A stretch of DNA of 63,681 nucleotides, the filler included. It is 4 parts of 4 records of this genome, joined end to end, with 100 filler letters (N's around TTAATTAATTAA, not from the genome) between each part and the next. Parts side by side here need not be neighbours in the genome. Positions count along the whole stretch, not along the records: positions 12,077 to 27,638 come from SRR20825010_943; 3 more parts are not named here. One strand, given 5' to 3'. Within the stretch, counting starts at the first letter, position 1. Each line of letters starts with the position of its first letter. The position numbers and the translations under genes are program-made. Shown here piece by piece: positions 12,077 through 49,102 of the stretch. Under the pieces are notes generated by a model that was given only the letters and a program-made list of their open reading frames with translations, was not told the origin of the DNA and ran no database searches.

Positions 12077-14564
12077 CGCCTTTGTGCGCCGGGTGAAGGA
12101 CAAAACTGTGCTCTTTCGTTTCGATACTGAAACAAATGAGCAAACGCCTGTATTTGACGGTCTTGATCGTGACCTGCAGGCCGAATTTATCGCGCAGGGC
12201 ACTTTCTATCCGCAATATGGCTGGTTCCCCGACGGGCGACACGTAGCCATTTGGGCGGGCGGTAAAATCCAGAAAATAGATATGGAAAAGGGTACGGCTG
12301 AGGTGATCCCTTTCACCGCCAGCGCCGAACACCAGTTGGCAAAAGCCCCGCGTGTTAGCCACGAACTTGCGCCCGATGTGGTAACAGCCAAGGCTGTGCG
12401 CCAATTGGCGGCGACAGCAGGCGGTGATGACGTAGTGTTTCATGCCCTTGGGCAGCTTTGGCGCCAGGGCGCAGGGCAGGCCAAGGCCCGCCGTGTGAGC
12501 AGCAATGCAGGCCTCGAGTTTGAACCTGCTTTCGCGGCGGATGGAAAAACCATCGCCTATGTTCACTGGCGGGACGAGGAAGGCAGCCGCCTAAAGGTGC
12601 AGGCGCTGGAGGGGAGCACAAAAACCCTTTTGCATACCCGTGGCATGGTGCGTGAGCCGGCCTTCTCGCGTGATGGCAAAACATTGCTGTACCGCATTGA
12701 AGCAGGCAGCAAATGTATGGGCGGTTATGGCACCGATGTGGGCATCTATGCCTTGGATCTGGCAGGCGGCAACACCCGCCGGGTGCTGAAAACCGGGGAA
12801 GCACCTCAGTTTTCACCTGACGGCCGTCGCATCTATTTCACCACCAGCGAGTGGGGAGCCTCTGGCCAGATCACCCGTATCGAAAGCGTGAATGCAGCGG
12901 GGTTTGAACGCCGGGTGCATGCGGTGGCTTATGGCTCGGATACACTTGAGCTCAGCATCAGCCCGGACCTGAGCTGGATCGCCTTCAAGGAAAACCGCCA
13001 GTATTACGTCATGCCCTATATGGAAACAGGCACGCCTGCCGTGGTGTCATCTTCAGTAGATGGCGCACGTAAGCTTACCAGCCTCAGCGGCTATGACATC
13101 ACCTGGACGGCGGATTCAAAAAGCCTTCACTGGGTGCTGGGCCAAAGTCTTTATAGCGCTGATGTTGGCGGTGGTGCCGCTTCGGTACAGGCCACGTTGG
13201 TGGCTGAGGCACCAGCACAAAAACCAAAAGGCATGATTGCCTTTACCGGTGGGCGTATCCTCACCATGCGCGGTGATGAGGTGATCGAGCGCGGCACGGT
13301 GCTTGTGGAAGGTGACCGCATCAAGGCTGTGGGCGCTGATATTGCCGTGCCTGCTGCGGCGAAAGTGGTTGATGTATCCGGCAAAACGCTGATGCCGGGC
13401 TTTGTGAACATGCATGGCCATCTGGAGGATTGTTATTATAGCTCTGTGGGCTTGATGCCTGAAAAACAGCCCAGCCATTATGCCTCTCTCGCCTTTGGGG
13501 CCACCACCAACTATGACCCTTACGCGACCGAGTTGCCCAGCTACGCCATGAGCGAAATGCAGGCGGCTGGCAAAATGGTCGGCCCGCGCACCATCAGTGT
13601 TGGCGGTGTTGTGTATGGCAGGGCGGGCAAGGGCGACCCGGTGTATGAACCTATTTTCAGTCTCGGGGATGCAAACGCCCTGATGGCGCGCAAGCGTGCG
13701 CTTGGCGGCACCATTATCAAAAGCTATCGCCAGCCTATGCGGTCACAGCGGCAGATGCTTGTGCGCGCGGGCCATGACGCCGGGGTGATGGTGGACATAG
13801 AAGGCGAGAGCCATTTCTATAACAACATCAGTGCGGTGATTGATGGCCACACGGCGCTTGAGCACAACTTCCCGGTGGCAACCCTTTATGATGATATCAC
13901 CCAACTGATGGCGGCGGGCGATACCCCAAATACGCCCACCATTATCGCCACCTTTGGTGAATTTATGGGTGAAAACTTCCTCTATGCCCAAACACGTCCG
14001 TGGGAAGACGCCCGCATTCAGGCTTATGTGCCTGCGGTTACCAGCAGCTACAGCGCACTTGGTGTGCCCTATTCAGCGCCCGCATATGTGCGCGGCATGA
14101 CCAGCCTGTCTGTCGCGGATGAGCTATGGGATGTGGGTTTTAAGTCGGTCGCGCGTTCGGTGGCGAAACTTGATGCCGCAGGTGCCACCATTAACGTGGG
14201 CTCGCATTCACAAATACAGGGGCTGGCAGTTCATTGGGAGATGTGGCTGATGGCCGAAGGCGGTATGGCAAATTCGCGCATTCTCAGGGCTGCCACCATG
14301 AGCGGTGCTACAACACTCGGGCTTGACGCGCAGATCGGTAGCCTTGAAGCAGGCAAGCTGGCCGACCTTATTGTGCTTGAGCGAAACCCGCTCGAGGACA
14401 TCCGTAACACAGATAGCCTGATCTACACCGTGGTTGGCGGGCGCATCTATGACCCGGTGACCATGAATGAAGTGATTAGCGCTGAAGTACCACGCAGCAA
14501 GTTCTATTGGGAGCTGCCAGACTATCGCGGCATCGACTGGAACGAGGCTTGGGCGGGGCAATAG
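12077..14564 (+). CDS. PD40/TolB beta-propeller + amidohydrolase protein (5' truncated)
   Basis: PxFSxDG repeats, GKTLMPGFVNMHGH metal motif, GSLEAGKLADL. Confidence 0.88.
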
Positions 14565-17008: not shown

Positions 17009-18489
17009 TGGCTGCCCCGGCTGATGGTGCCCATGCGCCTGCACGTTCGCTAGCGCTTTCATCCCCACTGCACAAGGCGGTACTTCGCCGCGCATACAAG
17101 AGTGGTGCAAGCTTCCCGGTCCTCAACCCCGCAACGGGCGAGCATCTGGCTGATGTGGCGGAGATGGGACCGAAAGATGTTAATGCCGCTGTTGCGGGCG
17201 CGAAAGCGGCCATGGCTATCTGGTCCCAAAAAACAGCGAAGGAACGGGCCGCAACCCTGATGGCGTGGCATGGGCTTATCATGTGCCACCAGGAAGAACT
17301 GGCCGAGTTGCTGACGCTTGAGATGGGCAAGCCACTCGCGGAAGCGCGGGGTGAGGTTGCACACGGCGCATCCTATATCGTGTGGTTCGCGGAAGAAGCC
17401 AAACGGTTATACGGTGACATTATCCCGACAAATGACCAGAACCGCCGTCTGCTGGTGATCAAACAGCCTGTGGGTGTTGTGGCGGCCATCACGCCGTGGA
17501 ACTTCCCAAGCGCCATGATCACGCGGAAGATAGCACCCGCGCTGGCTGCGGGCTGCACTGCCGTGGTGAAACCAGCAGAAGATACACCGCTTTCTGCCCT
17601 TGCGCTGGCGATCTTGGCCGAGGAAGCAGGCTTCCCTGAAGGGGCCGTGAATGTGGTGACTTGCAAGAACCCTGCGGATGTTGCCAAGGCGCTCACTGAC
17701 CATGACGACGTGCGCAAACTTTCCTTCACCGGCTCAACCCGTGTGGGCAAGTTGTTGATGCGCCAGTGCGCCGATACGGTGAAAAAAATATCGCTGGAGC
17801 TGGGCGGCAACGCGCCTTTCATCGTGTTTGATGATGCGGATATTGATGCAGCCGTGGCGGGTGCCATGATGGCGAAATACCGCAATGCAGGGCAAACCTG
17901 TATCAGCGCCAACCGCTTTTATGTGCAAGCCGGGGTGCGGGAAGAATTTGCCTTCAAGCTGGCTGAAGCTGTCTCAAGGCTCAAGATGGGCAATGGGGCA
18001 GAAGACGGCACGACCGTTGGCCCGCTTATCAACCCCGGCGCGGTTGCCAAGGTGGACGGTCTCGTGCGCGGCGCGTGTGCAAGTGGTGCCACCATTGTGC
18101 TGGGCGGCAAGCCGGGCGTGATGGGGGAAAATTTTTATGAACCCACTGTGCTCACAGGGGTAACGCCCGATATGACCATCAGCCAGAATGAGATTTTTGG
18201 CCCTGTGGCTGCTATCTACCCGTTTGAGGAAGAAGGCGATGCCATCATCATGGCGAATGATACACCATACGGCCTTGCGGCCTATGTTTATACCCGCGAT
18301 ATGGGCCGCATCTGGCGCGTATCCGAAGCGCTTGAATACGGCATGGTTGGCATCAATGACGGCACCTTCTCAAGCGAGGCTGCCCCCTTTGGCGGGGTCA
18401 AACAATCCGGTATCGGGCGTGAAGGTTCAAAATACGGTCTCGATGATTTTGTTGAGATCAAATACATCAGCATGGCGGGGCTTGCCTGA
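17008..18489 (+). CDS. gabD: NAD(P)-dependent succinate-semialdehyde dehydrogenase
   Basis: ITPWNFP, FTGSTRVG, LELGGNAP, NAGQTC, PFGGVKQSGIGREGS. Confidence 0.88.
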   Translation: MAAPADGAHAPARSLALSSPLHKAVLRRAYKSGASFPVLNPATGEHLADVAEMGPKDVNAAVAGAKAAMAIWSQKTAKERAATLMAWHGLIMCHQEELAELLTLEMGKPLAEARGEVAHGASYIVWFAEEAKRLYGDIIPTNDQNRRLLVIKQPVGVVAAITPWNFPSAMITRKIAPALAAGCTAVVKPAEDTPLSALALAILAEEAGFPEGAVNVVTCKNPADVAKALTDHDDVRKLSFTGSTRVGKLLMRQCADTVKKISLELGGNAPFIVFDDADIDAAVAGAMMAKYRNAGQTCISANRFYVQAGVREEFAFKLAEAVSRLKMGNGAEDGTTVGPLINPGAVAKVDGLVRGACASGATIVLGGKPGVMGENFYEPTVLTGVTPDMTISQNEIFGPVAAIYPFEEEGDAIIMANDTPYGLAAYVYTRDMGRIWRVSEALEYGMVGINDGTFSSEAAPFGGVKQSGIGREGSKYGLDDFVEIKYISMAGLA

Positions 18490-19853
18490 TGGTGGTGAGG
18501 TCGCTGGTTATCGCTTCCGCACTGGTCGCTGCTGGCCCCGCCCCCGCACGTGCTGATGACGGCCCAGCCTTATCAGAGGTTCTGGCATTGGTGCGTGCTC
18601 AGGCTGCGGAGATTGCGGCGTTGAAGGTGCGGCTCGTGGCGCTTGAGGCTGATGAAGGGGCGCCTGCACCGGTTTTGGTGACAGACCGTGCATCTGGCCG
18701 CATATCCGAGCGGGCCACTCCTGCTCTGGCGCCCGCTCCGGTCGCGGATGAAGCGCTTGCCCCTGTTCCTGCGTCTGTGGGTGAACCCTCTGGTTTTTCC
18801 ATCAAGCCCCGAGGTCGTATTGAGGCGGACACTGTGGCATACCATAGCCGCGATGGCCGCGCCTATGATGACGGTGCCGGTTTCCGCCGCGCGCGGCTTG
18901 GGGTGCAGGGCACGCTGCCGGGGAGCTTCAAGTATCAGATTGAGGCAGATTTCGCAGGCGGTGACAAAGCCAAGCTTGATGATACCTACCTGCGCTACAG
19001 CGGGATAGAAGGCACCGATATCACCATCGGCTTTCACAAGATTTATCATTCGCTTGATTCCGCAACCAGTGACCTTGATGTGAGCTTCATGGAGCGCAGC
19101 ATGGTCTCCAATGCTTTTGAAGTGGGCGCTGGCGGCAAGATGGGCCTGTCTGCGCTCACCAGCGGGCCTAACTGGTCTGTGCAATATGGTGTGATGCTCT
19201 CAAGCCCCAACTCGGGTGATGCGGACAAGGACGGCTGGTCTTTGGCGGGACGTGCCACTTATGCGCCGGTTATGGCGGAAGGCCGCCTGCTGCATGTGGG
19301 CGTGTCTGCTTATGTGCGCCATGAGGATGATGAGTTGGTCAGCTTCTCGGACAGGCCCGAGATCAGGAACGACAGCTTCAAGCCCTATGACAGTGGCACG
19401 GTTGCAGCCTCGCACTACAGCTATCTGGGTGGGGAGGTGGCTACCAGCTATGGGCCGCTCACCCTGCAGGGCGAGATATCCCGCATGCAGACAAGTGCCA
19501 GTACAGGTGACCACAACTTCTGGGGCACCACCCTTCAGGCCAGCTATATGCTGACAGGCGAGAGCAAGCCTTACTCAGGCGGTAAAGGTGCCTTTGGCAG
19601 GCTGAAGCCTCACCGGGCCATGGGCGAGGGCGGTTTTGGTGCGGTTGAGCTGGCGCTGCGCTTCAGCCACCTTGATGTGCGTGACGGCGGCACTGGCACA
19701 GTGGGGGATACACTCACACTCGGCCTCAACTGGTATATGACAGACGCTGTGCGGCTGATGATCAACGCGGTTGACTTCGGTGCCAAAGCCAGTGGCGGCA
19801 TCATCACAGCCAAAGGCCAGGCGTATGGCATGCGTGCGCAGGTACGGTGGTAA
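18489..19853 (+). CDS. OprO/OprP-family porin
   Basis: Signal peptide and coiled coil, FRRARLGVQG, FMERS, GAVELALRFS, LGLNWY, terminal W. Confidence 0.85.
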   Translation: MVVRSLVIASALVAAGPAPARADDGPALSEVLALVRAQAAEIAALKVRLVALEADEGAPAPVLVTDRASGRISERATPALAPAPVADEALAPVPASVGEPSGFSIKPRGRIEADTVAYHSRDGRAYDDGAGFRRARLGVQGTLPGSFKYQIEADFAGGDKAKLDDTYLRYSGIEGTDITIGFHKIYHSLDSATSDLDVSFMERSMVSNAFEVGAGGKMGLSALTSGPNWSVQYGVMLSSPNSGDADKDGWSLAGRATYAPVMAEGRLLHVGVSAYVRHEDDELVSFSDRPEIRNDSFKPYDSGTVAASHYSYLGGEVATSYGPLTLQGEISRMQTSASTGDHNFWGTTLQASYMLTGESKPYSGGKGAFGRLKPHRAMGEGGFGAVELALRFSHLDVRDGGTGTVGDTLTLGLNWYMTDAVRLMINAVDFGAKASGGIITAKGQAYGMRAQVRW

Positions 19854-19854
19854 G

Positions 19855-20970
19855 ATGATGATATCTCGCAATACTCTATCCGGGCTGGCGGCCAGCGCTG
19901 CAGCCTTTTGTGAAGGTGTGATGGCCGACGACAAGCCCCGGTTTGATATCGGTGCGGCTTATACGGCGGATTACTGGACCATCGCGCGCGGGGAGGTGCA
20001 TGACAGCCGCTACCTTGATAACCTTGATCTCACGCTCGGCTGGCAACCTTTGGGCGAGGACGGCCCCAGCGTTTTCCTCTATGGTCTTTATAATAATGGT
20101 ACCGGCTTCTCGTCAGAGCTCGCAGGTGATGCCCAGGTGATCAGCAATATCGAGACACCGGTGCGGGCAGCCCGGCTGTATGAAGCCTGGGTCGAGCAAC
20201 CTTTCCTGAAGGGGCGGGGCAGTATCAAGCTCGGGCTTTATGATCTCAATTCGGAGTTTGATGCGCTGGATAGCGCAGGCCTGTTTATCGCCAGCGCCCA
20301 CGGCATTGGCACAGACATCAGCCAAACCGGCCAGAATGGCCCGTCGATCTTCCCCATCACCTCACTCGCCGCTCGGCTTAGTGTGGATATCCATGATGAC
20401 ATCACCGCGCGTTTTGCTGTGCTGGATGCTGTACCGGGAGATGTGGACCACCCAAAGCGTACCACCATCAAGCTTGGGGGTGGTGAAGGTGCCCTGATGA
20501 TCGGAGAGCTGGAATACCGCACAGGTGATGCCAAGTTCCTCCTTGGTCACTGGCGCTACAGCGCTGACTTTGACGCTCATGACGGCAGCACAGATGGCGG
20601 TAACGCGGGCACCTATATCCGCGGGGAGTGGGCTGCGACAGACGACACAACCGTGTTTGCAAGGCTTGGCCAGGCAGCAGGGCGCTTTAACACCTTCAGC
20701 CGCTTCTTTGGTGGTGGCATCAACCACACGGGCATCTGGCAGGAGGCTGACCAGCTTGGCTTTGCCGTCGCATGGGCGGAATTGTCAGAGGGTTACCAGC
20801 AAGGCAACCCCACAGCCAACAGCCGCGAGGTGGCGCTTGAGCTCACCTACAGGGCTGACCTCACCAACTGGCTCTCTTTCCAGCCTGATATCCAGTATAT
20901 CATCAACCCGCTGGAAGGCTCCCAAAACGTGCTCGCCATTGGCTTAAGAGCGACGGCTGAGATAAACTGA
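19855..20970 (+). CDS. OprB-family carbohydrate-selective porin
   Basis: YLDNLDL, SNIE..RLYEAWVEQ, DLNSEFD, ELTYRA..QPDIQYIINP. Confidence 0.85.
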   Translation: MMISRNTLSGLAASAAAFCEGVMADDKPRFDIGAAYTADYWTIARGEVHDSRYLDNLDLTLGWQPLGEDGPSVFLYGLYNNGTGFSSELAGDAQVISNIETPVRAARLYEAWVEQPFLKGRGSIKLGLYDLNSEFDALDSAGLFIASAHGIGTDISQTGQNGPSIFPITSLAARLSVDIHDDITARFAVLDAVPGDVDHPKRTTIKLGGGEGALMIGELEYRTGDAKFLLGHWRYSADFDAHDGSTDGGNAGTYIRGEWAATDDTTVFARLGQAAGRFNTFSRFFGGGINHTGIWQEADQLGFAVAWAELSEGYQQGNPTANSREVALELTYRADLTNWLSFQPDIQYIINPLEGSQNVLAIGLRATAEIN

Positions 20971-21140
20971 AACTGAGGTGATGTAGGCGGATTCTGCCGA
21001 TTCGATGCGGTGTTTTGCCTACATATAACACCCCCGTACAAAAATGCGGTTTTTGGCGCTAGAAAATAAATCATTTAAAAACAGTACCTTAACTTATTTT
21101 TTATGATTTTTATCATCATCAGGCTTGTCAACGGCGATTA

Positions 21141-21164
21141 GGTGTTATACATAACTAATACACC
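21141..21164. promoter_or_regulatory. Candidate YtrA-type GntR operator overlapping a promoter
   Basis: GGTGTT-N12-TACACC long-spacer palindrome downstream of TTGTCA (21125-21130), resembling YtrA-subfamily sites. Confidence 0.65.
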
Positions 21165-21535
21165 GGCACGATAAAACGCCCAAACAGACACAAAGCGCCA
21201 CCCAAGCACGGCGGAATAAGTGAAGAGGGCACAGCGAGGAAACAGCCGGTGACGGGACACGGTAAAAATACCGGCCCGAGTGACGAGAGCGAGATAAAAA
21301 TAATACCGCGAGAGACCCGTCACGACAGCGAGGAAGAGAGCAGGGGGCCGGATAATAATGGCAAAAGCCGACCGGCCCCCAGGGCTCTCAAGCGAGGACC
21401 AGAGTAACAAAGCGAATAAGGCAAAAGCCAACGCTTTATAAAAAACAAACGACAGCACAAACATGGCGATAAGCCGGGATAACCCGGCAGCCCAAACAAA
21501 ACAAAAGCCCAATAAAAAGAAGCGAGGAGATAACA
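21165..21535 (+). ncRNA. Putative structured U-poor leader RNA/sRNA (family not recognised)
   Basis: Five GC-rich helical modules, four AGCGAGGA motifs in single-stranded linkers, about 7% T by hand count, no credible ORF. Confidence 0.55.
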
Positions 21536-21667
21536 ATGTCAAAACGGTCATATCATCATGCAAAACGGTCCCATCGTCGCATTCGCAGGCTTGCCCGCGA
21601 AGCGAGCCGTATGGCGCCTCTCGGTGCAGGCCGGGCCGCAGCAACATCAACTGCAGCTTTTGTTTAA
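21536..21667 (+). CDS. 43-aa basic small protein (not in ORF track)
   Basis: GAGGAG SD 6 nt before ATG. MSKRSYHHAKRSHRRIRRLAREASRMAPLGAGRAAATSTAAFV*. The stop lies 12 nt before the GntR start. Confidence 0.55.
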   Translation: MSKRSYHHAKRSHRRIRRLAREASRMAPLGAGRAAATSTAAFV

Positions 21668-21679
21668 GGGGAAGAGCAT

Positions 21680-22039
21680 ATGACGCCGGATTGGACGGAT
21701 GACCAGCCGATCTACCGGCAACTGAAGGACAAGGTAGTTACGGCCATTATGGAAGGCTCTCTCCGCGAGGGTGAAGCCCTTCCGTCGGTACGTAACGTAG
21801 CTGTGGATTTGCAAATAAATCCAATCACTGCCTCAAAAGCCTATCAGGAGCTGGTAATGGACGGTTTGGTAGAAAAACGACGCGGGCTTGGTATGTTCGT
21901 GGTCGATGGCGCACGGGATCGGCTCACAGAAGCCGAGCGTGATCGCTTTCTAAACGAAGAATGGCCCCGCGTGCTGGAAACAATCCGCCGCCTTGGGCTC
22001 AACACTGAAGAACTGCTGAAAAGCAGCAAGAACCATTAA
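21680..22039 (+). CDS. GntR regulator, YtrA subfamily
   Basis: PIYRQL, LPSVR, INPITASKAYQEL, RRGLGMFV; short C-domain; precedes ABC genes. Confidence 0.92.
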   Translation: MTPDWTDDQPIYRQLKDKVVTAIMEGSLREGEALPSVRNVAVDLQINPITASKAYQELVMDGLVEKRRGLGMFVVDGARDRLTEAERDRFLNEEWPRVLETIRRLGLNTEELLKSSKNH

Positions 22040-22050
22040 GGGAGGCAGAT

Positions 22051-22926
22051 ATGACACAAGAGAAAAACAACAATCTCGTCGTTGAAGCCAAGGGTCTTGC
22101 CAAAAGCTTCGGCAATTTTCATGCCCTCAAGGGCGCAACATTTTCCATCCCGCTTGGCCGCATTGTGGGCGTTATTGGTGCAAACGGCGCCGGTAAAACC
22201 ACCATGCTCAACGCGGTTCTTGGCCTTTCATCTTATGATGGGGACCTGAAAGTTCTCGGGCTTGATCCCTCAAAGGATCGGGACGCGCTGATGAAAGACG
22301 TTTGTTTTATTGCAGATGTCGCAACGCTGCCGAAATGGATGAAGGTTGTGGAAGTGCTGGACTTCGTTGAAGCCGTACATCCGCGGTTTAACCGCGAAAA
22401 GGCGATGAATTTCCTCTCCCGCACCAAAGTGCCGCTGGAGCGCAAGGTTCGCGCGCTTTCAAAAGGTATGACAGTGCAGTTGCACCTGGCTGTTGTTATG
22501 GCGATCGACGCCAAGCTGCTGGTGCTGGATGAGCCAACCCTTGGCCTTGATATCATCTTCCGTAAACAGTTTTATCAAAGCCTTCTTGAAGAATATTTTG
22601 ATGAAGACCGCACGGTTATCATCACCACCCACCAGGTGGAAGAGGTGGAGCATATCCTCTCTGACGTGATGTTCATCAAGGATGGTGAAATTGTTCTTGA
22701 AGCCGATATGGACGAACTTACCCAGCAGTTTATCGAGGTAATGGTCGCGCCCGGCAAGGAAGAAGAAGCCATGGCACTTGGGCCGATCACAAAAGGATCG
22801 ACCTTCGGTAAAGCAACGTGCGTCTATAAAAATATTGACCGCGAGAAGCTGGCAAAACTGGGCGAAACGCGCCGCCTGGGCCTGGCTGATATCTTCGTGG
22901 CGACAATGACAGGAGAGGGGCAATGA
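22051..22926 (+). CDS. ABC transporter ATP-binding protein
   Basis: GANGAGKTT, LSKGM, LLVLDEPT, H-loop. Confidence 0.95.
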   Translation: MTQEKNNNLVVEAKGLAKSFGNFHALKGATFSIPLGRIVGVIGANGAGKTTMLNAVLGLSSYDGDLKVLGLDPSKDRDALMKDVCFIADVATLPKWMKVVEVLDFVEAVHPRFNREKAMNFLSRTKVPLERKVRALSKGMTVQLHLAVVMAIDAKLLVLDEPTLGLDIIFRKQFYQSLLEEYFDEDRTVIITTHQVEEVEHILSDVMFIKDGEIVLEADMDELTQQFIEVMVAPGKEEEAMALGPITKGSTFGKATCVYKNIDREKLAKLGETRRLGLADIFVATMTGEGQ

Positions 22927-23855
22927 ATACCTTTGTAGCCCTTGTTAAACGCGAGGTACTGGACGGCAAAAACGGGTATATCCGGGTGCCGGTTATTCTG
23001 GCAGGCCTGACTGTGGCGCTTGTTATCCTATCGAGCCTTGGTTTCGGCAACATGCTGTATTTTGATGGCATGGAGCATGAAGGTATCGAGAATTTGGCTG
23101 ATGCCATGAACAAGGCGGCGACACGTGAGCCGGAAGAGTTCCCTGCGGCCGTGACGATCGGTTACTGGGCCATGAGCATGCTGGCGTGGATTGCGCTGCC
23201 GTTCGTGATCTTCTTCTCGCTTCTGGGCGCACTTTATGAAGAGCGTCGTGACCGTTCGATCCTGTTCTGGAAATCCATGCCGGTTTCTGACTGGGCTGAG
23301 GTTCTGGCCAAGTTTTTTGCTCCCATCGTGATCGCGCCCCTGGCCTTTCTCGGGGTTGCGATTGCCGCGCAGTTGATCATTGCTGTGTTCCTGAGCATTT
23401 TGATGGTCTTCCAGGGCGGCCCCGTGCTTGACCTGTGGCCGCTTGGCCTGATGATCACCAGCTGGTTTACGGTGATCTCCCACTATCTGATGTGGGCTTT
23501 GTGGGCGCTGCCGGTTCTGGCCTGGGTACTGCTGGTTTCGGCTTATGCATCCCGCATGCCTTTCCTCTGGGCGATCCTGACACCATTTGTTGCGATCATT
23601 GTTGAGGAATTGTTCCTGGATACCCATATGATCGGTCGCTGGTTTGCTATCCACCTGGGTGGTTGGCAGGACGGTGCGTTCGCGCAAGTGTCAGACAATT
23701 TCGATGGCCCGCGTGATGTGTTGATGGCAGTTATGAACGGTATGCAGTGGCACAGCATAAGCTATAGCCTCACGAGTCCTGCCTTCTGGCTCGGTCTGGT
23801 GATTGCAGGCGGGTTGCTCTTCGGAGCGGTAGAGCTTCGCAAGCGCGCTTTCTAA
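22923..23855 (+). CDS. ABC-2-type permease
   Basis: Multiple TM helices, LYEERRDRSILFWKSMPVS motif, ATGA overlap. Confidence 0.88.
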   Translation: MNTFVALVKREVLDGKNGYIRVPVILAGLTVALVILSSLGFGNMLYFDGMEHEGIENLADAMNKAATREPEEFPAAVTIGYWAMSMLAWIALPFVIFFSLLGALYEERRDRSILFWKSMPVSDWAEVLAKFFAPIVIAPLAFLGVAIAAQLIIAVFLSILMVFQGGPVLDLWPLGLMITSWFTVISHYLMWALWALPVLAWVLLVSAYASRMPFLWAILTPFVAIIVEELFLDTHMIGRWFAIHLGGWQDGAFAQVSDNFDGPRDVLMAVMNGMQWHSISYSLTSPAFWLGLVIAGGLLFGAVELRKRAF

Positions 23856-47914: not shown

Positions 47915-49102
47915 ATGACCATGAATCGATCGCTCTCTGGTCGAAGCAATCTGTTCTCTGTTTTGGCTTGCCTTCCTTTGCTTTGGATGGCTGGAATCAT
48001 CTCGGCCACTTCGGTTGCATCCGGCGATGGTCCTGATCTACCGGTCGTGGATTTGTCGCAGCAAACAGAACGCCAGGTCGTCATCGCTGCGGGAACAGAA
48101 GAAGTCTATCAAGGCCACCCGACGACGTTGAGGTTGCCGGAGAGCGACACGATCTATTGTGTTTGGTGTGTCAATCACGGTGGCTCCGCCGGCCCGATGG
48201 CCAAGAGCGAGGATGGTGGACTGACGTGGTCGCGACTGGATGATCAGTTGCCGCCCAATTTCTCCAAGCATCAGAATTGTCCGAGTATCTATCGGATTGC
48301 GGATCCCGAGGGGAAGCCACGATTGTGGGTGTTCTCGGCGGCGCTCAATCAGCGTGGCGGTCCGGGAATGCCGAGCATCATGAGCGAAGATGATGGGAAG
48401 ACTTGGACGGAGATGCCACCACTTGGTTTTCCATGTGTGATGACGTTCAGTAGCGTGGTGACACTGAAAGATGGCCGAACGTTGGGGCTGTATCACAAAG
48501 GACCGGACGGCAAAGACAAAGCACCGTTGACCGTGTTGCAAACCATCACGGCGGACGGCGGGTTCACGTGGTCTGAGCCGCGAGTTGTCGCGGAGGTGGA
48601 AGGAAAGAATCCCTGCGAGCCGTTTGTGTTTCGTTCACCTGACGGCGAAGAGCTGTGCTGCCTGATGCGAGAGAACACGCACCGCGGTCGCAGTTTGATG
48701 ATGTTCTCTCGTGACGAGGGGCAGACCTGGAGCACGCCTGTTGATACGCCATGGGGATTGTCGGGCGATCGGCACATCGGCGTGGCGTTGCCGGACGGTC
48801 GCTGGGTGTTCGCGTTTCGCGATCAGGCTCCTGGCAGCCCGACGCTTGGGCACTTCGTGGCTTGGGTGGGAACCTATGAGGACATTCGCGAGAATCGGCC
48901 CGGGCAATATCGTATCAAGCTCTTGCACAGTCACGCGAAGAACGTTCGCGATTGTGGTTATCCTGGCGTCGAGTTGTTGCCCGATGGAACGATCGTGGCG
49001 ACCACCTACATCAAGTATCGCCCCGGCCCAGAAAAACACTCGGTCGTGACCACTCGCTTCCGCATCGAAGAGACCGATGCACTGCTCCGCGAAACACGCT
49101 GA
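47915..49102 (+). CDS. BNR/Asp-box sialidase-like protein
   Basis: Signal peptide; [37 protein letters not shown]. Confidence 0.85.

Follow-up and report, generated by a model that had tools for sequence, protein, structure and literature searches.

In a stretch of DNA of 63,681 nucleotides (nt), hereafter the window, we analysed an RNA element that lies ahead of a small open reading frame (ORF), a gene for a YtrA-type repressor of the GntR family and the genes of an ATP-binding cassette (ABC) transporter. We consider it likely that this long, U-poor 5′ leader serves as a multi-site pairing platform, as a target, as a sponge or as both, for a conserved trans-acting small RNA (sRNA), with Hfq as the probable partner. 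The leader probably captures several copies of the sRNA, whose gene adjoins an oxyR-like gene in the nearest genome and whose seed is complementary to purine motifs repeated along the leader.

The element is defined as follows.

21152-21535, plus strand: U-poor, A-rich structured 5′ leader RNA, recognised from composition, relatives and fold, with a contig resembling complementary DNA (cDNA) over 21121-21506

Between 21165 and 21535 the plus strand holds 150 A, 101 G, 93 C and 27 T (n=371 nt), exactly the roughly 27 T in about 370 nt that an earlier note on this DNA had counted by hand. A sliding 371-nt count places the T minimum of the whole window at start 21160, with 7.0% T; the 371-nt stretches of the window average 22.0% T (standard deviation 3.0), and the second-lowest stretch has 12.1% T. 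The window's base count also includes 264 N. The octamer AGCGAGGA occurs in the leader at 21233, 21327, 21391 and 21521 and the mini-hairpin GGCAAAAGCC at 21360 and 21420, all where the earlier note had placed them. Outside the leader there are three further plus-strand octamer copies, remote from it at 48206, 49234 and 49908, and one further copy of the mini-hairpin at 12338; none of the remaining octamer copies in the window (48206, 49233, 49908) is at a ribosome-binding site. An E-value scan of 20500-22500 against Rfam, which the earlier note had asked for after failing to recognise the family, gave only noise for the leader (ceN61, 16 bits, E 4.8). No terminator was found in the leader ahead of the Shine-Dalgarno (SD) sequence of the small ORF, and the RNA continues into the small ORF and ytrA.

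The leader recurs in relatives. Of 61 related genomes searched with a 601-nt query, 36 gave a match, and 35 of the 37 in the same family did so; conservation peaked at the promoter and operator. In each of the 20 loci fetched, the operator is followed by 300-400 nt poor in T. A YtrA-anchored search returned 80 loci and placed the window in Kordiimonas, with 100% identity to the chromosome of a Kordiimonas sp. metagenome-assembled genome (MAG). From these 80 we picked 39 loci with U-poor leaders, from Kordiimonas, Pseudokordiimonas, Yunchengibacter, Eilatimonas and several MAGs, which share the layout of YtrA-type operator, U-poor leader, small Arg-rich ORF, ytrA and ABC genes. Their leaders are 239-508 nt long and, in those measured, contain 5.5-14.1% T against a locus background of 19-29%; the low T content is kept even where genome G+C is 43-45%. 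The rare U residues stand mainly in AAUAA or GAUAA contexts. An alignment of the 39 whole leaders is very gappy (897 columns). Composition, several helices and the motifs persist while the leader sequence drifts.

Short leaders of 45-120 nt are found in Iodidimonas, Rhodothalassium and some MAGs. They hold a single long copy, GGCCCG..GUCACGACAGCGAGGA, directly ahead of the Arg-rich ORF, and the pair is therefore older than the expansion of the array; in these lineages the Arg-rich protein occurs as RRxRRRxRR variants. Stenotrophomonas and MAGs labelled Robiginitomaculum are without the leader element, and the operator, more diverged, can be traced to Stenotrophomonas loci. A contig of run X19, less than 90% alike, joins 21188 to 21680 and comes from another organism without leader and small ORF; this junction of the operator region to ytrA fits gain or loss of the two as one block. 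In Eilatimonas milleporae (L060), which has the 508-nt leader, an apparent second copy of the Arg-rich small ORF (MSSQRAKYHAKQAHRRARRR...) lies upstream, suggesting that the whole ORF module was duplicated.

The repeated motif led to a partner. The full composite motif has one other occurrence in G001, the nearest genome, which shows 100% identity across the 601 nt tested; this copy lies about 780 kb from the leader. A degenerate pattern search across the class was mostly noise at control level, yet it revealed this second locus; in G001 itself, the pattern search found the leader to be the only CAGCGAGGA cluster, with no second array. The strand opposite the motif at the second locus has the plan of an sRNA: a 5′ hairpin, a single-stranded UAUCCUCGCUGUCGUGACUCGG, a GGCCGGG...CCCGGCC hairpin and a U-run. 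The gene occupies about 1161-1280 of locus L115 on the minus strand (G001:C1, near 2.80 Mb). Its sole Rfam resemblances, on the same strand, are SorY (33.5 bits, E 8e-5, against a gathering score of 111) and SorX (29.5 bits, E 6e-5, against 46.6). These scores place it outside both families, although it has their architecture of hairpin, CCUC seed and intrinsic terminator.

Conservation of this locus extends to 24 of 25 genomes of the genus and, among 16 genomes of the order's other families, to 7; the 11 best matches outside G001 are 86-94% identical over about 155-185 nt. In all 17 sRNAs that we aligned, from Kordiimonas, Yunchengibacter, two Iodidimonas, Rhodothalassium and one MAG, the 29-nt block UAUCCUCGCUGUCGUGACUCGGGCCGGGU is invariant. 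Variation is seen in the 5′ hairpin, where 7 of the 21 consensus pairs have changed on both sides and still pair. Every one of the 22 leader-bearing genomes checked (12 + 5 + 5) has the seed. Across the class, a search tolerating no more than one mismatch detected it in a single genome of the 151 sampled, G001 itself. The gene lies upstream of an oxyR-like gene on the same strand; its neighbours are a tadC-like gene at 15 of the 17 loci and the oxyR-like gene at 13. From its conservation and layout, the locus looks like a real, previously undescribed sRNA gene with a 29-nt invariant seed. A GCGAG near its 5′ end is predicted to pair with part of the seed, and the sRNA may mask itself in this way.

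The leader motif (GGCCCGAGU[G/C])ACGACAGCGAGGA complements the single-stranded seed exactly, and the octamers belong to a sequence of 23-28 nt complementary to it; therefore the most likely ligand of the repeats is the sRNA. Among the 127 kb of both strands of the window, exact matches of at least 8 nt to the 28-nt perfect target number 30, six of them inside the leader (21231-40, 21273-81, 21319-34, 21391-98, 21449-56 and 21521-28), the longest being 16 nt. The window's two best seed duplexes on either strand also lie in the leader, at -34.1 and -30.9 kcal/mol against -12.2 (standard deviation 3.8). Once opening costs are counted, five of these six sites stay favourable, at -8.8 to -20.7 kcal/mol. 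The predicted sites are as follows.

21231-21240, plus strand: site A, ACAGCGAGGA, a 10-nt exact complement of the seed, conserved as the first CAGCGAGGA in most leaders
21273-21296, plus strand: site B, GGCCCGAGTGACGAGAGCGAGATA, which complements almost the entire seed, 24 nt with 3 mismatches; hybrid -47.6, net about -17 kcal/mol
21319-21334, plus strand: site C, GTCACGACAGCGAGGA, a 16-nt exact complement at -34.1 kcal/mol, net about -21, the strongest predicted seed duplex of the 63.7-kb window
21391-21398, plus strand: site D, AGCGAGGA, an extra copy mainly in the closest relatives; net about -9
21449-21456, plus strand: site E, ACGACAGC, a complement of the mid-seed; net about -9 to -10
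21521-21528, plus strand: site F, AGCGAGGA, the SD of the small ORF and also a seed complement; net about -9

The same pattern holds across the 39 leaders, which contain 177 exact seed matches of at least 8 nt (mean 4.5), with at least three in 37 of them. Equal-length downstream coding DNA and the reverse complements of the leaders each gave none, and mononucleotide shuffles gave 0.18 per leader, so that the complementarity to the seed of a trans-acting sRNA goes beyond chance. Among the component motifs, AGCGAGGA is found in 37 of the 39 leaders (85 copies), ACGACAG in 36 (67 copies), CAGCGAGGA in 34 (66 copies) and GGCCCGAG in 23. The usual plan is three copies of CAGCGAGGA, each immediately 3′ of a hairpin and the last being the SD. 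Of the other CAGCGAGGA sites of G001, about 8-10 of 36 lie 5-9 nt upstream of an ATG, a count made with no control motif run; the ORFs behind them are candidate further targets of the sRNA. The loci are L152, L153, L155, L158, L166 and L169 (also L141, L146, L149 and L171), and several of the ORFs have N-termini that resemble signal peptides.

The leader is structured, with covarying helices. For the RNA 21152-21540 the minimum free energy (MFE) is -107 kcal/mol, compared with -79.3 (standard deviation 5.1) for 100 dinucleotide shuffles (z -5.4), none of which was as stable. Together with the composition and the relatives, this bears out the modular, structured, U-poor leader that the earlier note had described. 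Three elements of the fold are used below.

21161-21251, plus strand: helix P1, CACCGGC (21161-21167) with GCCGGTG (21245-21251), present in the centroid and enclosing the 5′ domain and site A
21336-21389, plus strand: helix P3, GAGAGC/GCTCTC stacked on GGGGGCCGG/CCGGCCCCC with a GGC-AAAA-GCC cap, from fold and covariation
21473-21488, plus strand: hairpin GCCGGG-ATAA-CCCGGC ahead of the SD, from the predicted fold

P1 has three independent compensated variants (L047/L049, L055 and L058), whose cognate 3′ strands bind at -15 to -20 kcal/mol, a value equalled by 0-1 of 35-36 foreign strands; in the anchored analysis it was not detected in six divergent leaders. The inner helix of P3, after the second octamer, was followed in the 25 of 39 leaders with recognisable anchors, the other 14 being left out: 89.3% of cells pair and five of nine pairs show compensatory changes, values that 0 of 500 shuffles reach, and slid controls pair at 63.6% at most. 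Such covariation was one of the checks proposed by the earlier note, most of whose helices recur in our fold. Its GCCC/GGGC around CGCC/GGCG is in both the MFE structure and the centroid, and its GAGAGC/GCTCTC on GGGGGCCGG/CCGGCCCCC, AAAGCG/CGCTTT and GCCGGG-ATAA-CCCGGC are in the predicted fold. The exception is GTGACGGG(21249)/CCCGTCAC(21316), which is absent from both; its competitors are the P1 pairing, with its compensatory support, and GTGACG(21280)/CGTCAC(21317).

Leader hairpins vary in sequence and register between relatives, and anchored analyses were used for the helix tests in place of MAFFT with RNAalifold, which on the 3′ module, the module from site 1 to site 2 and the 5′ domain returned 0-7 pairs, mostly invariant. 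A pairing of site 1 with GGCCCG proposed by RNAalifold was dropped, its pairs being all invariant and its energy only -1.6 kcal/mol. In 28 of the 39 leaders a hairpin of variable sequence ends at most 6 nt from the SD motif (judged on the 42 nt upstream, MFE -5 kcal/mol or lower); these 42 nt have a mean MFE of -8.6 kcal/mol against -4.9 in shuffles, and in the window the gap from hairpin to SD is 24 nt. The octamers were said to lie outside the helices, and across the 39 leaders the G and C residues within GCGAGGA do have a predicted unpaired probability of 0.61, compared with 0.32 for G and C elsewhere; for A it is 0.89.

Assembled reads also bear on the leader, although no run is recorded as RNA. 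A contig of X15, a run that we only guess to be RNA, covers 21121-21506 at a depth of 70.8 and has a 22-letter extension at its 5′ end, which we take to be the SMART template-switch oligo, and an A-run at its 3′ end; the two fit a plus-strand cDNA. A second X15 contig spans 21514-21681 at a depth of 3.5, and two further runs have contigs holding leader sequence only. The 3′ end of the long contig may reflect internal priming on A-rich RNA or a true processed end. These contigs lend weak support to transcription of the leader region, and the long one argues weakly against a transcription start downstream of 21500, which the earlier note had named as grounds for giving up the leader.

Taken together, we envisage a long 5′ leader of the small ORF-ytrA-ABC transporter operon that would be made under YtrA-type repression. 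G-C hairpins in series, closed by A-rich loops and joined by A-rich linkers, would form a scaffold displaying five or six single-stranded purine motifs (ACAGCGAGGA, ACGACAGC, GGCCCGAGUGACGA...), each of which complements a portion of the oxyR-adjacent sRNA's invariant, pyrimidine-rich seed (UAUCCUCGCUGUCGUGACUCGGGCC). We infer that the two RNAs pair in vivo. Pairing at the last motif would mask the small ORF's SD, so that repression is predicted, and the stronger upstream sites would capture additional sRNA molecules. This upstream capture could reinforce or buffer control of the operon, or the induced leader could act as a sponge that frees other sRNA targets. The scarcity of U and the confinement of C to helices may keep the purine sites from pairing inside the leader; the same composition would leave A-rich tracts fit for the distal face of Hfq, and U avoidance may perhaps also limit attack by RNase E. 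Hfq is encoded in five of five genomes tested, and AAYAAYAA occurs 42 times in the leaders against 5.6 expected from mononucleotide shuffles, a generous null since A residues cluster in the linkers; the two suggest that Hfq probably assists and is not itself the species titrated. The earlier note had proposed a protein- or ribosome-titrating RNA, or a complex leader. The leader stands and a titrating RNA is still a live idea, while the generic protein or ribosome linkers give way to octamers that match an sRNA seed.

A bolder version holds that, on YtrA release, each leader binds five or six copies of the sRNA, coupling the YtrA signal to the sRNA regulon, and that the near absence of U is a design rule of the sponge. 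We put this forward tentatively and think it rather doubtful. The sponge form might be a processed fragment of about 385 nt ending before the SD, as the 21121-21506 contig hints, in which the lack of U would mean no self-pairing with the purine sites, few RNase E sites and poly-A-like landing pads for Hfq. RNase E prefers AU-rich single strands.

Several observations weigh against a pairing platform. Sites D, E and F match the seed exactly over only 8 nt, and site A nets about +1.6 kcal/mol when long pairing is forced; on the other side of the duplex, the predicted GCGAG-seed pairing within the sRNA costs 4-19 kcal/mol to open. The leaders L035 and L058 retain one exact match of at least 8 nt each in genomes that both retain the sRNA, and the array is therefore dispensable in some lineages. 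Complementarity runs on into the terminator hairpin of the sRNA, so that site B may have arisen as a relic of an antisense duplication and not by selection. Because GAGGA resembles an SD, part of the motif conservation could serve 30S binding. With the seed invariant, covariation of sRNA and target gives no test, and the sites span about 90 of 371 nt, insufficient alone to explain U avoidance. The expression, ends and promoter of the sRNA are predictions. The contrast in X15 depth (70.8 against 3.5) may stem from oligo-dT priming on A-rich RNA, and the contig's 5′ end at 21121 is upstream of the conserved promoter and suits a non-conserved promoter match better.

Some of these observations would be expected of an ordinary sRNA target, in which a single site functions, either the SD-proximal one or a strong one upstream, the other copies are leftovers of internal duplication or of antisense insertion of the sRNA gene, and what remains of the leader serves as a structured, stabilising spacer. 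Short-leader relatives do have just one long site, direct-repeat relations are visible within leaders, the complementarity reaches the terminator hairpin, and L035 and L058 have lost most of their sites. We nevertheless find this account unlikely, because at least three sites are kept in 37 of 39 leaders from several genera whose flanks have diverged beyond alignment, and because the position of the sites, each just 3′ of a hairpin, is conserved. It is quite improbable that the leader binds proteins or ribosomes independently of any sRNA, with GAGGA as 30S standby or stabiliser sites or as operators for the Arg-rich peptide, and with A-rich tracts that titrate Hfq as CrcZ does. STAB-SD elements of Gram-positive bacteria are sites of this 30S-binding kind. 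The last copy is a true SD, the conserved Arg-rich motif of the small ORF is of a kind known from RNA-binding peptides, motif and ORF co-occur across orders, AAYAAYAA is enriched and Hfq is present. Conservation, however, includes CAGC and ACGACAG, which the 16S 3′ end would probably not read, and the 23-28-nt match to an independently conserved seed would have to be coincidence. The Arg-rich peptide or 30S binding may still have a role.

Sponging of CsrA/RsmA in the manner of CsrB/RsmY, to which the earlier note had likened the element, is hardly credible, even though GGA-containing motifs are repeated in one RNA. A csrA gene (PF02599) was detected in one of five complete, leader-bearing relatives and in the control genomes, and none in G001, which is 100% complete; the motifs lie in linkers and not in hairpin loops, GGA is depleted across the leaders (240 observed, 346 expected), and there is no Rfam match to CsrB or Rsm RNAs. 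The single homologue (55 bits) is at G013:C9:31391-31531 (L101), in a Kordiimonas genome. The note's other comparison, with CrcZ, fared better in part: A-rich repeats and Hfq are there, and a stand-alone sRNA gene with its own terminator, the mark of a CrcZ-type Hfq sponge, is not what the leader is. An absence of function, or a protein gene on the minus strand (a 170-amino-acid ORF at 21138-21650), has next to no standing. That strand is open for 170 codons and nearly stop-free in many relatives, an artefact of its being A-poor; the match to the closest relative, 84% identical at the DNA level, splits into three frames, the frames are interrupted in several relatives, Pfam gives no match, the helices covary and the cDNA-like contig has plus polarity.

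Around the leader, the operon is arranged as follows.

21089-21116, plus strand: sigma-70-like promoter match TTAACT-16-TATCAT, which would start near 21121; not conserved in relatives
21125-21130, plus strand: -35-like TTGTCA, conserved; in relatives TTG(T/A/C)C(A), with constant spacing to the operator
21142-21163, plus strand: very likely the YtrA-type operator, GTGTTATACATAACTAATACAC, with inverted half-sites GTGT(A/T).../...TACAC, found in all 20 loci at 3 mismatches or fewer
21536-21667, plus strand: small ORF of 43 amino acids with an Arg-rich N-terminal motif KRxxRRxRRLAR; conserved, ATG at 21536
21680-22039, plus strand: YtrA-subfamily GntR repressor of 119 amino acids (PF00392); best NCBIfam hit PmtR at 60 bits, cut-off 200
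22051-22926, plus strand: ABC ATPase; best NCBIfam hit PmtA at 141 bits, below the cut-off of 350
22923-23855, plus strand: membrane protein of 310 amino acids, from ORF analysis

The element GTGT-N14-ACAC at 21142-21163 overlaps the conserved TTGTCA promoter and is very likely the YtrA operator, because its half-sites match the YtrA box of Bacillus subtilis, AGTGTA-13bp-TACACT (PMC8060467). An inverted repeat of the form GTGTA-N12/13-TACAC stands at the promoter of the ytrA operon, upstream of the leader, in keeping with the GntR control that the earlier note had suggested. A candidate -10 (TATACA/TACATA) lies inside the operator, with a predicted start near 21152-21158; at the upstream match, 21089-21116, the flanks of relatives hold no conserved -10.

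The last octamer, at 21521, was correctly taken as the SD of the small ORF, which is conserved. In relatives the Arg-rich protein has 38-51 amino acids and the consensus MxTRSYQxxKRxxRRSRRLAR...FAA, with R14, R15, R17, R18 and R21 each at least 90% conserved in 36 sequences. It matches no Pfam or NCBIfam family, and all 32 homologous proteins are 'hypothetical' or nameless. A profile search of the PDB with the small protein returned the ryanodine receptor only (E 2.6), a chance Arg-rich match. At the end of the ORF, 21610-21665, a hairpin with a U-rich run resembles the MicL terminator in Rfam (20.8 bits against a gathering score of 56) and relatives do not retain it as a terminator. Classical attenuation through the Arg-rich ORF was rejected because relatives are without a conserved terminator past the ORF and this match is weak; a reading of the leader as translated small ORFs was likewise set aside, the GTG after the first octamer being unconserved. 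Upstream of the leader are two adjoining porin-like ORFs (18489-19853 and 19771-20970), the second of the OprB family. The first contains GGCCCGAG (19354) and ACGACAGC (19369) on the plus strand, 15 nt apart, probably by chance.

Both RNAs have parallels. SroC is an mRNA-derived sRNA sponge against GcvB and links ABC-transporter mRNAs (PMC4474525). As with SroC-type sponges, a transcript of an mRNA locus is here complementary to the seed of an Hfq-type sRNA and could compete with other targets; unlike them, the leader is a 5′ element and not a 3′ or intergenic fragment, and it combines three to seven seed-complementary sites with an extreme, conserved U-poor composition. Other traps of this kind are the chbBC-ChiX trap and 3′ETS-leuZ, and the bacterial sRNA sponges and traps known to us have one or two pairing sites. 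CrcZ and CsrB/RsmY are, like the leader, modular RNAs in which a short single-stranded motif is repeated between hairpins, and AAnAAnAA-like motifs are enriched in the leader as in CrcZ, with Hfq encoded; those RNAs are stand-alone protein-titrating sRNAs, whereas the leader is part of an mRNA and its motif matches an sRNA seed.

The partner sRNA resembles SorX (RF02784) and SorY (RF02651) of Rhodobacter sphaeroides in its 5′ hairpin, its CCUC-containing seed (CCUCGCUGUCGUGA, against CCUCCCUGUUGGA in SorX/SorY) and its GGCCGGG terminator with U-run. All three are from Alphaproteobacteria; SorX and SorY act during oxidative stress, on mRNAs of transporters (PMC7074977, PMC6238624), and the new sRNA adjoins an oxyR-like gene. 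SorX is cut from a 3′ untranslated region, whereas the new sRNA has its own conserved upstream block. As for the operon, ytrGABCDEF of B. subtilis likewise has a GTGTA...TACAC operator over the promoter, a small ORF before ytrA and ABC genes after it (PMC12772383, PMC8060467). The small ORF here is Arg-rich and without a membrane segment, unlike YtrG, and the resemblance to pmtR-pmtABCD of Staphylococcus aureus comes from NCBIfam hits below cut-off only. From a search that was not exhaustive, we know of no long leader or array of sRNA sites in YtrA-type autoregulated operons. Full-text literature searches found no description of a U-poor bacterial leader, a Kordiimonas sRNA or a multi-site sRNA sponge in a leader.

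The analysis brings out an sRNA with a 29-nt invariant seed and a conserved Arg-rich protein of 40-50 amino acids to which no function is assigned, and it links a YtrA-type repressor of an ABC operon with an oxyR-adjacent sRNA, two regulators that are otherwise unconnected. The composition rule of G-C helices, A linkers and purine sites offers a handle for finding such arrays in other genomes. If the proposed pairing holds true, a leader that keeps three to seven seed sites across genera on a nearly U-free scaffold would be a new architecture of control by sRNAs, and would provide a testable case of threshold-setting or cross-talk through the multiplicity of sites.

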